From assembly GCA_010356995.1 (NCBI GenBank), contig ML996692.1:1189933-1253932 (forward strand): a stretch of 64,000 nt of DNA, in the 5' to 3' direction. Positions 37,572 to 63,455 of this stretch are shown piece by piece. The stretch's first letter is position 1; the number at the start of each line of letters is the position of its first letter. Source of the stretch: Trichodelitschia bisporula (taxonomy: Eukaryota). The notes below the pieces were generated by a model, which saw nothing but the letters and a program-made list of their open reading frames with translations, did no database searches and was not told where the DNA came from. A program made the translations under genes and the position numbers.

Positions 37572-38717
37572 ATGATGGGCTTCCCACTGGTGCTTTGTCT
37601 GCTCAACTTTGCGAGCGTGGTGTTTGCACATGGCTACATCAAATGGGTCGGCGTAGATAACAAACTGTAAGCCTCATGATATGATGCTGCATAAGACACT
37701 AAACTAGTTAGATGGCCCGGATTTAACCCGTAAGCGGCTCACTCACCTCAGGTACGACCCTAACGTACGTAGGCACGTAGACGCTGCTATCAAGGCGAAG
37801 CGCATCTCCTTCGGACAGAGCTACAGCAACCACCCACGCTATGCACCCGACAATGTGCTCCGTTCGGACATCGCCTGCGGATCCCACAACGTGCCGGCAG
37901 GCGCTCAAGCACCCGCACGAGCTGGGAGCAACATCACCTTCGGCTGGTCGACATGGCCAATAACGCACAACGGACCCATCATGACGTACATGGGCCGGTA
38001 CTCGGGAGATGTTGCCAACGTCAACGTCAACGAAATTGAGTTCTTCAAGATTGGCGAGCTCGGCCTGCTGCCGGACAACGTGACCTGGGCCACCAATGTC
38101 CTTACGGCTAACGACAACGTGACGTCGGCGACGATTCCGCATGATATCATCCCGGGAAATTACATCGTTCGTCATGAGCTCATTACGCTCCACTTTGCGA
38201 CGGAGGACAGTCGGTATTATGATGCGGCGGCCAAAGCCAAGGGCGCGCAGGTGAGCGATTGTTCGATGCCAGCAAGGAGCCTGACTGATGCTGTTAGCAC
38301 TTCATTACTTGCTTCAACATCAAAGTGACAGGCAGCGGGAAGGTTCAGCCACCCGGAGTCAAGTTCCCAGGGGGATACAAGCCAAGAGATCCGGGTATCT
38401 ACTTCGACTTGTATCGCAACATCACACCATATCCGATTCCCGGACCGCCAGTGTACAAGCCATCGGGACCGGCGCCAGTTCTCGAAGACAAGCCGTACGA
38501 AATCGTCATGCCGGTCGGCAACTTGGTCGAGGACATCAAGTACTTCAACAACATGTACTACCAGGCGTGGAAGTGGGACGGGCAGACATATAAGCGGAAC
38601 TACGACGCGATTCATGGATGGGAGGACGGACCGAACAAGAATCTTACGCGCGCCTGCACCGCTGCGGATCCTTGTCTGGAGGACATCGGAGGAAGTAATC
38701 CGTCATATGGACTTTAA
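37572..38717 (+). CDS. AA9 (GH61) lytic polysaccharide monooxygenase
   Basis: Signal peptide followed by N-terminal His (HGYIK); WPITHNGP; PGNYIVRHELITLH; GAQ; YPIPGP. Introns 37667-37711, 37730-37772 and 38251-38297. Confidence 0.92.
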
Positions 38718-57388: not shown

Positions 57389-57719
57389 TTTTGCGGTTGT
57401 GGAAGTTGGGTTTGAGGTTTGGAGTTCGGGGTTTAGGTGTTAATGGTTCTGAAAGTCGTGGCGCTTGCGATGCTGTTGTTGACGCCGATGTAAACATGCG
57501 CGGTTGTTAGTCCACCCCGGTCCTGGTCCACGGGCCAACGCGCCACTCCCCCCCCCGGCAGCGGCGCCACACACCTGCGTCACCAGCCCGCGCCACGCGG
57601 ACGACGGTGTGGCGCCAAATCCTGCTGCTTGACTTCATCTCACCACCTCCGCTCCGTTTACCGCACCTATCGTCTTCTCGCCGCAAAGTTGCAAATACAG
57701 AAGAGTTCTAGTTGTTGCC

Positions 57720-58478
<759 letters not shown>

Positions 58479-58874
58479 TGGGGGGTTTGAGAGGGGGGGA
58501 TGGGTGGGGTGATGATGGGATGTGTATGATGAATGGGTGGGGTGGGTGAGCTTATTGCTAGGGTATTGATGTTTCTTTTGCACTGGCTTTGCTATGTTGG
58601 GCACTGAGGCGCTTGTTGATGAAGTTTCGGCTTTAAGATACATGGGAAACACCGCAGTGATCAGACACGCCCAACACGCGAACTCCGTCGGCCACGCCAG
58701 CACTTTAACCAGACTCAGCACCAGCATCAACATGAGCAACCCCCGTACCATCACCCCGGCACCTCAGCGTACTTCCGCATCAACCACGTATGCACGTCCG
58801 ACGTATCCTCCAAACCACCCGCGCGGAACTGTACCGTGGTACCATCCCTGTGGAGCACCCACGTACTGTATGCA

Positions 58875-59460
58875 TGACCAGACTGGCGATACTCGCAAAC
58901 GACAAGCCGTACAAGATAGCGAACATGGTGCTCATAACAGGCTTCCGGAGAAGCGCTCCAAGACTATGGCGTACAGGAGACCGTTCTCTCAAATTATCTA
59001 GTAGCGAGAGTGCGTTGCATGGCCCTAGTTTGTGGGTAAGTATTCGGCATAGATACCAATCTTCACGAAGTCTTTGATGGAGATGGCTAGCTCTGCCGAA
59101 TGCTGGCCCATCAACTAGGACCACACAACTGACTGGCGATTCCAGCGAATTTGGGAAACCGGTCTCCTGCATGTGGTGCTCATAACCGGGTTCCGCAAGA
59201 GCGCTTCACGACTATGGCGTACCGGATACCTTTCTCACGGGTTCTCTGTATCCGAGGGTCCATTGAGTTATCCAGGGTGTGCCTGAACTCCGCGGCGGAG
59301 ATAACCATCCTCGTACTAGTACGGTGAAATCGATACCAGCGGACACTCGAAAGCCGTCCGACCGTAAGGCTTTTATCCTCCGCGCAGAAGCTCCGTTTCA
59401 GATAAAAGTGTCCGTGAGGTAGCGTTGGAGCCGGCCTAGGCCGGTTCTCCGCACCTACAG
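58875..59460 (+). repeat. Diverged direct duplication (period about 250 bp) with a coding-like signature
   Basis: VLITGFRRSAPRLWRTG (about 58927) versus VLITGFRKSASRLWRTG (about 59176), with mostly synonymous differences. Confidence 0.7.
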
Positions 59461-59865
59461 AGCCGATAAGCACCGTTCAAAGGTTCGTTACCGGAACCGA
59501 GAGCGGACGCTAAGGAACTAAGCATCATATATCTCGCACCAGCCTTGCGCATACACCGACGACCGCGATTACGCCCATCACGATATCTTCGATTGCTTGC
59601 GAGAGATCCGAAGTCCGAATTTCCAGAACGAAGACCAGGAAGGCTCGATTCGACTAACTGAAAGCAAAATGATGCCGACCCCAAACCACGCTGTGCACAT
59701 CAAGCTAGAACGACACCTCCATACCCAACCCCAAACAGCGCCGTGGTATCATGCATCCCAAACCCCGTTCCCTAAAAGCTCTAATTTTCCATGCCTTATG
59801 TGCTGAAGCCATCATTATCCGCGGAAAGAAACAATCTGTATCCAAACACTCGCTTCGCCGCGAGC

Positions 59866-61972
59866 TTAAAATGCAAACTGCGACCACACAGCCGCAGCCG
59901 CAGCCGCAGGCAGAGCAATCAACCAGACACTCTGAAGCGTGCTAGGTGCCGCCGCACTCTTCGCGGGTTTACCGCCATCAGGCTTACCGCCATTAGACGG
60001 AGTCCCGCCGGGCGTGGTACTGTTGCCCGAAGACGTAGTGCTATTTATATTAGCCAAGAGAGTCCGGCTTGATCACACTGTTAATGTAAAGGTCCGAAAA
60101 TGGAATCTATAGATAAATATACAACATTGATGAAGGAGTGACGACCTGCGCCAACGCCCCTGAACTTTACTCCACTGCACCATTAGGCGCACTTCACACC
60201 TCTAGAGACACCCCCTTACGTCAATATCGCGGTCCGGGTGGAAGGATGGCCAGGAGGGAAGGTAAAGGTTCAACGAAAAGCAAAACCTACTTGAGCTTGA
60301 GGATCAGTTCTGCCGCGCGCTCAGCTGCAATCATGGTACCAAACTGGATTTGTCAGCGGTGCTCCAAAAACCAAGACGAGACTCTTACCTGAGGGTTCAC
60401 AGTCAGGGGCTCGACGATCGACGCGTCGACGACGTGAATGTTGGTCGTGCCCTTGACTTGGGTGTTGGTATCCACACAGCTGCCAATGCGGCAAGACGAC
60501 GAGAAATGGTTCACTTCGCCACGCGTATACGGCGTCTCGGAGGTGATGTACTTCCGGATGTCCTGCTGGCTCGAGTTGAGAGGCAGATTCAGCGGCTTGA
60601 GAAGGGTCGGGTCCAGGCCCTGAAAGATGCGGAAGATGAAGGTAGCGATGTCCTCCGCGTCCTGCGGGTCGCTGTAGTACACCTCCGGCGACGGGCCGGG
60701 CAGGAGCTTGTCGTTCAAGATGACTTTGCCGCGAGACTTGAGCCCGGAGGTGCCGTACACGTTCAGCGTGATGGTCTGGTTGCTCTTGTAGTCGCCGAAG
60801 CCGGAGGAGTCGATGGTGCCCTGGCAGCCGGCCGAAGTGCCGTCGTTGCGGTCGACGTAGTCCCAGAAAGCGCTCGTTTCCGAAGCAAAGGAGTAGGGCC
60901 CGCTGCGGTGGTTGATGTACTCGTCCGCATCGGCCTTGATCGGGTCCGAGTAGTTCTGCACATAGGACTCAATGGTCGGGCCCTCGAGCTCAACGAAAGT
61001 GTTGGGGTTGTCAAAGAGACCGTCGCCGACGGCATTGTTGTCGATCCAGGCCTGCTTGATATCCAGAACACCGGCGCGGGAGAGGTTGGACTGAATGGCC
61101 TTGTCGCCGATGCCGGAGAACATGAGGATTTGCGGGCTCTGCAGGGCACCGCCGCTGAGGATGACACGGCCGCCGCTGTTCAGCTTGATGGTGTGGACGG
61201 AGCCGTTGACGGGCTTCACTAGGACGCCAGTCGCCGTGTTACCGTCGCGCTCGACACGCTGCACGCGCGTGTACATCTCCAGGTGGAAGTTCGTCCGGTT
61301 TTCGGCCTCCTTGAGGTAAACCCGGGTAGGCCCGCCCCGCTGGCCACCGATGTAGTCAAAAACGGTGCGGCCAAAGGTCCCATTCTTCTCGTCTGGCTGC
61401 TTGTTGAACTGGACTTCCTTGTAGCCGACGCCGTCGACGAGCCACTTGCGGGCAGCCTGGTAGCCCGAATCCAGGTAGAACTTGCCGTCCTGGGAGTAGA
61501 CCTCGCTGGAGGGCAGCTTCTCGTAGCACTTGTCAATGGCGCTCTTCACATCCTTGGCCTTCCAGCCGTCTGGGAAGTAGTTATCGAAGTCCGAGGCCGG
61601 GGGCTGGAAGAACAGCCCCGCGTTGATGGCGCTGGAGCCGCCAACGGTGCAGCCGGTAAAAGCGGCCGCGGAGTCAGTGCACGTCAAGTTGCCCTGATCG
61701 GCAAAGATGGATTTGTACAAGCCGGGGACATCAACGCGGCTGAGATCGGTGCCGTCGAGCCACTTGGGGCGCTGCCGGCCACCAGTGGAGTAGTACGACG
61801 GACCACCGCCTTCGAGAAGCAGTGTCTTCTTGCCTGCTTCACTCATGCGGTTTGAGATGATGAGGCCGGCGGGCCCAGCGCCCACGACAATGACATCCCA
61901 TGTCTCATCCCACGGCGCAGCCAAGACGACAGACGCAATGGCTGCATAAAGTAGCGACAGTGAGGCCCGCAT
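59866..61972 (-). CDS. Cellobiose dehydrogenase-like GMC flavoprotein (AA3_1) lacking a cytochrome domain; short form stops at 60287, spliced form at 59866
   Basis: Signal peptide directly followed by WDVIVVGAGPAG; DVPGL; GGSSAINAGL; NHFSSSCRIG; VVDASI; NPQ. Intron about 60343-60388 and optional intron 60041-60290. Confidence 0.9.
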
Positions 61973-63455
61973 GTTTGGTGATAAGCCGGGGGGCTGAGGG
62001 GATAGAAAGGATCTTCGAGGTGGAGGAGAGGGAGAGAGGGGATTTTGACGTGAGCGAGAAAGAAAATGTCCGACGAAGCACAAGACGACGAGGCATTGGA
62101 TAGGCTATATGTGTAAGTTGGGGTGGGGCCACCGGAACAAGAATACGGAGATCTCCATGACAGGCAGGGGACGGAAAGTGGTAGGCTTAGATGCCAGGCA
62201 CGCCGCAACACCAGGTTGTATGGTTTGTCGATTAGTTCTAGGTCTCACCGTTCGGTACAGGCGTACAGCGCACGCACACTCGGCTTGTGATGATCAGGAC
62301 GCAAGCAGCTAGAACCTTGAAGGCCGCAGGAGGCTCAAAGCCTCCTACAAGGTTGCCTATTCGGAGAGCTGAGAGCGAGGTGCAGGCCAAGCGATGGTGC
62401 ATCAGCAAGATGACCTATTTTTGGCCCCCAACTCGCCGAGCTGCTGGAAAGTGAACAGCGGAGGAGCTTGTTTGTTTGTTTGAGGTTGGACCTTGGCTTC
62501 GGCCTTTCCTTCCAACCAGCCTCATGCTGTGCGCAGCTTGGAAACACGGCAAAGAGCGGGGATGGTTGTACGCGGGGATTGCTGTAAGTCTTCGGGCCAT
62601 TCGATGTCCCTTCCTACCGACTCCTTGAGGACGACACAAGACCGACCTTTGGATGACCGACATCCTTCTAGCCAGAGAGCTGCGTTCCACTATGTTGTCC
62701 GGTCGACACATGCAAAGAGGGGGTTTGCCGGACATTCACGGAACCAAGAGATGATGGGCAAGATTGATGCTTTTCAGGTGTCCAGCAACGGTCGCGGTAT
62801 GCGCCCCACTTCCCAGCCCGTGGCTTTGCAAGCATTTCCCAGGCCGGGGGCCAGTTACGGTAGGGGACCATGTGCTGCCCTGTGCATCCGAGCTAACCAC
62901 CCCAAGAGGAAAGGCGCAGTCCTGTTCAAGTCAAGCCTCCCCCGCTCCCGTTCCCGGCACGGCTTGGCGCGGCGTGGCTTGACCCTACAGCCTTAAAAAG
63001 CGCCTGAATTGGTGCCTGGCGACTTATCTCAACACCAAAAAGAGCTTCGGATGGCACTGTGATCGACGGTCATCAATTGATCGCTCATCTACCGTTCCAT
63101 CGTCCCACTGCTTACAGGACTGCTGCTTCTTTTGTCCTTTGGGAATGTCAGCTTCGACCTTGGCCCTCCTTCCTTTGACTGGAAATTGCTCTCTCGCCAC
63201 ACTGCTCCTGCCGGCGTCCGCGACCACCTCATCCTCATTCCACTACAATACTCCGTAATCTCACGAGAACGCTCCCGGATCCCACGCGCGGTTCTGGAAC
63301 GCAATCTGGTCTTTGGACCTCATTCACTATACGGTATACCCCTCAGCCCAAATCCAGCCACAATCCCGATCCCCCGAGTCCAGACCAAACATCTCGAACA
63401 AAGCAAACGCGTCATGTGCACGTTTTTCGCCTCATACCGGTCTTGACACATGCCT

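Follow-up and report, generated by a model that had tools for sequence, protein, structure and literature searches.

A stop codon within the donor of a last intron, spliced or retained, may separate an anchored from a free form of a cellobiose dehydrogenase-like enzyme in Trichodelitschia bisporula

The window, i.e., the whole stretch of 64,000 nucleotides of Trichodelitschia bisporula that was analyzed, carries on its minus strand a gene that, judged from its sequence, is a cytochrome-less flavin dehydrogenase of the cellobiose dehydrogenase (CDH) family (AA3_1). Transcripts with and without the last intron of this gene were found, and removal of the intron attaches a tail with the layout of a GPI-anchor signal behind the usual end of the enzyme, a layout that is shared with relatives. 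A functional use of the two isoforms, one anchored and one free, is regarded as the probable reading, with a rough probability of 60%.

The gene starts with the ATG at 61972, and all coordinates given for it are on the minus strand. Exon 1 (60389..61972) has 528 codons, is covered by contigs of RNA type, and encodes the signal peptide, which was predicted by eye for residues 1-18 (61919..61972), together with the larger part of the GMC flavin dehydrogenase domain. Intron 1 (60344..60388) has a length of 45 nt, is in phase 0 and lies 3' of the catalytic Asn526-Pro-Gln; its joint was seen in both runs, X1 and X2. Exon 2 (60291..60343) encodes the last helix of the GMC fold and ends with CTC AA. 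Intron 2 (60041..60290) has a length of 250 nt and is in phase 2, its donor GTAGGT starts at 60290, and its acceptor TAG ends at 60041. When it is retained, the Lys codon is completed and is followed by a TAG (60287..60289) that overlaps the donor, and the short form of 546 aa results. When it is removed, AA and C form an Asn codon that is followed by 57 more residues, and the long form has 603 aa. The coding part of exon 3 (59866..60040) contains a linker of Ser/Thr/Gly/Pro/Asn and the GPI-type signal, and ends with a TAA (59866..59868). The 3' UTR extends at least to the contig limits, which are 59679 in X1 and 59565 in X2 (59565..59865).

The preliminary description had proposed the stop within the donor, a branch point GCTAAT (candidate, from the motif match, at 60049..60054) shortly before the acceptor, and the matching phases, and all of these were confirmed at their positions. 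It had also called the intron about five times longer than typical; intron 2 is indeed longer than the five other introns seen in RNA within 57400-63400 (45, 47, ~75, ~91 and 128 nt), but it has about three times the local median and not a five-fold length. Three further acceptors, at 60068, 60020 and 59942, are also in the frame of the tail (20 downstream AG sites were listed), and the RNA joint was found at 60041 only. The RNA fold of intron 2 was ordinary (z 0.81). A database protein of the same species, P0003, a cellobiose dehydrogenase-like protein of 546 aa, is 100% identical to the short form, and thus the public gene model is without the tail.

Splicing was analyzed with assembled, unstranded contigs from the two runs, which belong to one sample, across 57400-63400. 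X1 and X2 are not recorded as RNA, and their nature was judged from the behavior of the contigs: splice joints are present in the dehydrogenase gene and in its neighbor, and the intergenic depth is low, and, thus, both runs behave as RNA. The exact junction 60040/60291, which skips 250 nt and has the ends CT..AC, was found in both runs, with depths of 668.3 in X1 and 597 in X2. In addition, a 310-nt contig of X1 (60011-60320) covers the whole intron 2 with a depth of 264.8. The retained path represents 28% of both paths in X1, which is 37-74 times the intergenic depth (3.6-7.1), and the spliced form represents the other 72%. In X2 the spliced form was the sole form, and a contig retaining intron 2 was not found, though the sample was the same as for X1. 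For intron 1, a retained contig was found in neither X1 nor X2. Because contig assembly drops rare variants, retention in X2 and of the control introns is to be read as low, not nil. The bin depths of X1 were exactly reproduced without a contig that retains intron 1, showing that the retained molecules had already lost intron 1. Neither of the two outcomes that the preliminary description had named as refuting was therefore observed: the junction is present in contigs of both runs, and splicing was below 100% in X1.

The RNA nature of the runs was only guessed and the contigs are unstranded, and, thus, the intron-spanning contig could stem from DNA or from an antisense transcript. However, the splice joints in several genes, the low intergenic depth and the high depth of the intron relative to this background all argue against it, and we rate this explanation, together with the one that the tail does not work as a GPI signal, as very improbable. 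Another route to the short form had been suggested as well, namely polyadenylation in an AT-rich stretch of the intron. The stretch exists (60091..60130, with 70% AT in 40 nt from 60130), but AATAAA is absent from the intron, and the use of a poly(A) site is not visible in contigs. Cleavage and polyadenylation within intron 2 could compete with splicing and be the main source of the short form. The patch near 60130-60090 speaks for this, and such a competition is known for human ACHE (PMC5388418). The contig of X1, in contrast, runs from exon 2 through all of intron 2 to exon 3, and thus full retention exists. Loose ends were also not listed, though contigs cannot show ends. Intronic polyadenylation as the main source of the short form is accordingly given very little weight.

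Further transcription was seen around the gene. The gene contig of X1 reaches upstream to 62795, and low-depth contigs lie upstream of the gene at 62860-63400, which in X2 include a plus-strand intron of 47 nt; this suggests an antisense transcript over the promoter of the dehydrogenase gene (62860-63400). A neighboring gene, which is Fis1-like by eye (57739-57921, plus strand), contains a micro-exon (about 17-19 nt) that is flanked by introns of ~91 and ~75 nt.

The tail begins with a linker (84% Ser/Thr/Gly/Ala/Pro/Asn), to which K-S-A-A and then a short spacer are joined, and its last 20 residues are uncharged. GPI signals consist of a polar linker, small residues at omega to omega+2, a spacer and an uncharged hydrophobic end. 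Ser574 (59956..59958) is approximately the candidate omega residue, based on these rules and on the likeness to GH72 proteins; it is part of the K-S-A-A, has Lys at omega-1 and lies 29 residues before the end. The hydrophobic end comprises residues 584-603 (59869..59928). GH72 is a family with known GPI anchoring, and in the genome all four GH72 gene ends (4/4) have the same layout, with K-K-[SG]-[AD]-A and hydropathies of 2.22-2.58; the motif that the dehydrogenase tail has in common with them is K-[SG]-[AD]-A. The proposed GPI layout of linker, KSAA and hydrophobic end thus agrees with anchor signals of the same genome. Among the 656 stop-to-stop segments in the window with at least 55 aa, the dehydrogenase tail was the single one to pass a crude GPI-tail filter, which is not NetGPI and the thresholds of which were chosen after the tail had been seen. 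According to the title of a study by Ouyang et al. from 2013, a Lys at omega-1 is said to favor the plasma membrane. A tail that is not a working signal would fit to the hydrophobic end, which is Ala-rich, contains a Pro and has a best 11-residue hydropathy of 2.14, slightly under the GH72 ends. However, the tails in three branches of the clade described below kept linker and hydrophobic end as a layout without conservation of the sequence, which argues against a tail without function.

The short form is a complete enzyme by comparison with its family. Pfam found only the N- and C-terminal GMC domains (PF00732, PF05199), starting from residue 25, after the signal peptide, and a match to the cytochrome domain PF16010 was not found in the protein. 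All five structural-database matches at E<1e-50 were CDHs, with 271-283 bits. The FAD-binding GxGxxG is G31-G36, and the catalytic His/Asn pair, His489 and Asn526, aligns to His689 and Asn732 of PcCDH. The residues Glu279 and Arg586 of PcCDH bind cellobiose (PMC6719666), and in the 1kdg alignment they correspond to Lys87 and Asp388, a reciprocal charge swap that is invariant in 22 proteins of the clade. The cellobiose-binding pair is thus replaced, and the substrate may differ. The similarities to CDH structures of class I and class II are about equal (272 and 283 bits). By its domain architecture, the protein probably belongs to CDH class IV. This class, the CDH clade most distant from the others, consists of secreted ascomycete proteins with the dehydrogenase domain only, and PMC6509819 reported no characterized enzyme for it; the CDH set of this paper includes the Verruconis orthologue P0016, as short form, in a dehydrogenase-only block. 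The short form extends as far as the solved CDH domains do (its residue 545 aligns to residue 542 of 546 in 1kdg). A recognizable last helix is present in 189 of 216 relatives, and 178 of these 189 have no long extension. The short form therefore ends at the domain end like most relatives, and retention yields the usual product of the family and not a fragment. An AlphaFold model from a 22-row alignment had a pLDDT of 46.7, which is too low for use.

In a tree with 129 rows the protein was placed within a clade of 31 rows (SH-aLRT 100), together with proteins of Venturia, Verruconis, Tothia and Microthyrium. The position of intron 1 is constant across this clade, and unspliced relatives read into the intron at this place. 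Protein models that end exactly at the equivalent of Lys546 were found for 11 of 16 members of the clade, versus 1 of 216 outside; the 16 are the clade models with a recognizable last helix, five rows, of which three belong to the 16, were assigned to the clade by 90% cluster and not by tree, and nine of the eleven are from Venturia or a close branch and, thus, not independent. In one 90% cluster of V. inaequalis two models end at the Lys and two continue into a GPI-like tail, and the simplest reading of these sequences would be that a phase-2 donor overlaps the stop here too. P0015 of Tothia ends with K-L-N and six odd residues, and P0012 of Microthyrium ends with G-K-Y; in both models this last donor seems to have been mis-called. 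P0022 and P0265 have a GPI-like tail that is joined via Asn at the same place, and both introns are absent from their long contigs, indicating either an origin from spliced RNA or a lineage that has lost both introns; P0265 was missed by the filter and is outside the 16. Some lineages may thus keep the anchored form only. A further protein search revealed no new tailed proteins of the clade among the best 120 matches.

A metagenome scan revealed 56 loci, mostly outside the clade, and the C-terminus was found in 37 of them. Locus L019 has AA|GTAGGC at the stop, which is the layout of the clade, but its sequence breaks off 176 nt downstream of the stop and does not reach a tail exon. The overlap AA|GTAGG is thus also present in this locus, but a second genomic copy of the full layout of donor, intron and tail exon was not seen as DNA. 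In three outgroup loci the stop region reads AA|GTAAG, and an anchor exon was not found there. In a branch outside the clade, intronless GPI-like tails are present in 4 of the 37 metagenome loci (L010, L049-L051) and in P0145 and P0202, and these were probably gained independently.

The overlap of stop and donor was rejected as evidence for a switch by itself, since phase and donor consensus suffice to produce it. Any phase-2 intron that starts with GTAA, GTAG or GTGA reads a stop if it is retained, and, thus, the overlap alone is not a sign of design; three of the five other introns seen would likewise read a stop if they were in phase 2. That the overlap requires no selection is also in accordance with an enzyme that is constitutively GPI-anchored. 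The retained RNA would then result from slow splicing of the last intron or be a substrate of decay, free enzyme would be produced by shedding, and the short annotation would be an error of the gene finder. The predominance of the spliced form in X1 and its sole presence in X2, as well as the intronless tails of P0022 and P0265 and of the separate branch, are in line with this explanation. Among fungal splice events, intron retention ranks first (61%), and it is often thought to be non-coding or to feed decay (PMC3925392). The retained mRNA, which has a 3' UTR of 600-720 nt, might also be subject to degradation or nuclear confinement. However, a retention of 28% is high for molecules from which the neighboring intron is already out, and what retention yields is a whole enzyme of the type usual in the family. 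A constitutive anchor is thus considered possible, but rather doubtful.

For the preferred reading with two functional forms, we infer translation of both forms, anchoring, localization, activity and any regulation as follows. The last intron would be spliced or retained, so that two mRNAs are formed from one gene. The spliced major form would be translated to the 603-aa protein, in which a GPI anchor would replace the tail at about Ser574, and the enzyme would be held by a glycosylated stalk on the plasma membrane or the wall. The retained form, about a quarter of the molecules in one run, would be translated to the complete enzyme of 546 aa, which, as for most proteins of the family, would be secreted in free form. 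The enzyme would oxidize an oligosaccharide with FAD and the His/Asn pair, and the electrons would be transferred to an external acceptor. The anchor exon would have been added behind the usual stop of the family in the ancestor of the Venturiales-centered clade. The idea of a free versus a tethered enzyme, already contained in the preliminary description, is thus supported by the two RNAs in X1, the GH72-like tail and the complete domain of the short form, but its variant with intronic polyadenylation has no visible support.

The gene encodes the sole CDH-like dehydrogenase found in the genome, and the next best match has 44 bits (best candidates scored). Among the five GMC matches in the genome (best candidates scored) no fused CDH was found, and none lies beside a cytochrome domain. 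Cytochrome domains of the CDH type are present at four loci on other contigs (L098-L101). Judged by eye, L098 and L099 look free and secreted, and in L100 and L101 the domain is fused to membrane segments. L099 (G000:C4:1218726-1219333, minus strand) is located head-to-head with the AA9 LPMO gene L070, and L101 (G000:C9:876909-877406, minus strand) head-to-head with the AA9 LPMO gene L068. A further AA9 LPMO gene is located within the window at 37816-38426 (plus strand), and about 21 kb separate it from the dehydrogenase gene. A partnership of the dehydrogenase with cytochromes and LPMOs is speculation. An extended scenario is regarded as unlikely. In it, a regulated and old retention switch across Venturiales and neighboring orders would shift a class IV CDH between hyphal surface and medium, the enzyme would act as the flavin half in a split CDH, and splicing would set whether LPMO-driving electrons arise at the surface or at the substrate.

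Splicing is known to shift the location of other enzymes. Alternative 3' splicing generates GPI-linked and secreted ceruloplasmin, and fungal glycolytic enzymes acquire spliced peroxisomal tails; these are other enzymes, which rely on a choice between exons or on another kind of targeting signal. The closest parallel described is human acetylcholinesterase, for which intron 4 is spliced in the GPI form (H) and retained in the soluble form (R) (PMC5388418). As in the dehydrogenase, one catalytic domain is combined with splicing or retention of the last intron. Acetylcholinesterase is an unrelated animal enzyme with a third isoform, and AChE-R has an intron-encoded tail of its own, whereas retention adds nothing to the dehydrogenase, which stops at the usual end of the family. 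The GMC fold, the FAD motif and the His/Asn pair are common to the class I/II CDHs (1kdg, 4qi4, 4qi7) and the cytochrome-less TmXdhA (PMC9730589); unlike the class I/II CDHs, the Trichodelitschia dehydrogenase is without cytochrome, CBM1 and the Glu279/Arg586-type subsite. It shares its organization with the CDH IV clade of AA3_1, for which GPI is not mentioned in the main text of PMC6509819, nor does the term occur in the main texts of the other CDH papers checked. In the literature covered, which mostly excludes subscription papers, no fungal CDH with a GPI anchor or with alternative anchoring was found. Spliced adhesin isoforms are reported for Candida glabrata, and an anchor on/off switch was not found there in the parts of the sources available.

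Taken together, the anchor exon is real, shared across the Venturiales-centered clade and mostly unannotated, and its intron shows measurable retention. Class IV CDHs are reported as uncharacterized and have been modeled as free secreted enzymes, and a major isoform with a GPI tail would place the enzyme at the fungal surface, which alters the functions that deserve testing. Provided that the short form is produced as well, the gene would be a clean fungal case of enzyme tethering that is set by splicing, a logic best known in animals. It also suggests that annotations of fungal secretomes may commonly miss anchor exons that lie behind annotated stops.
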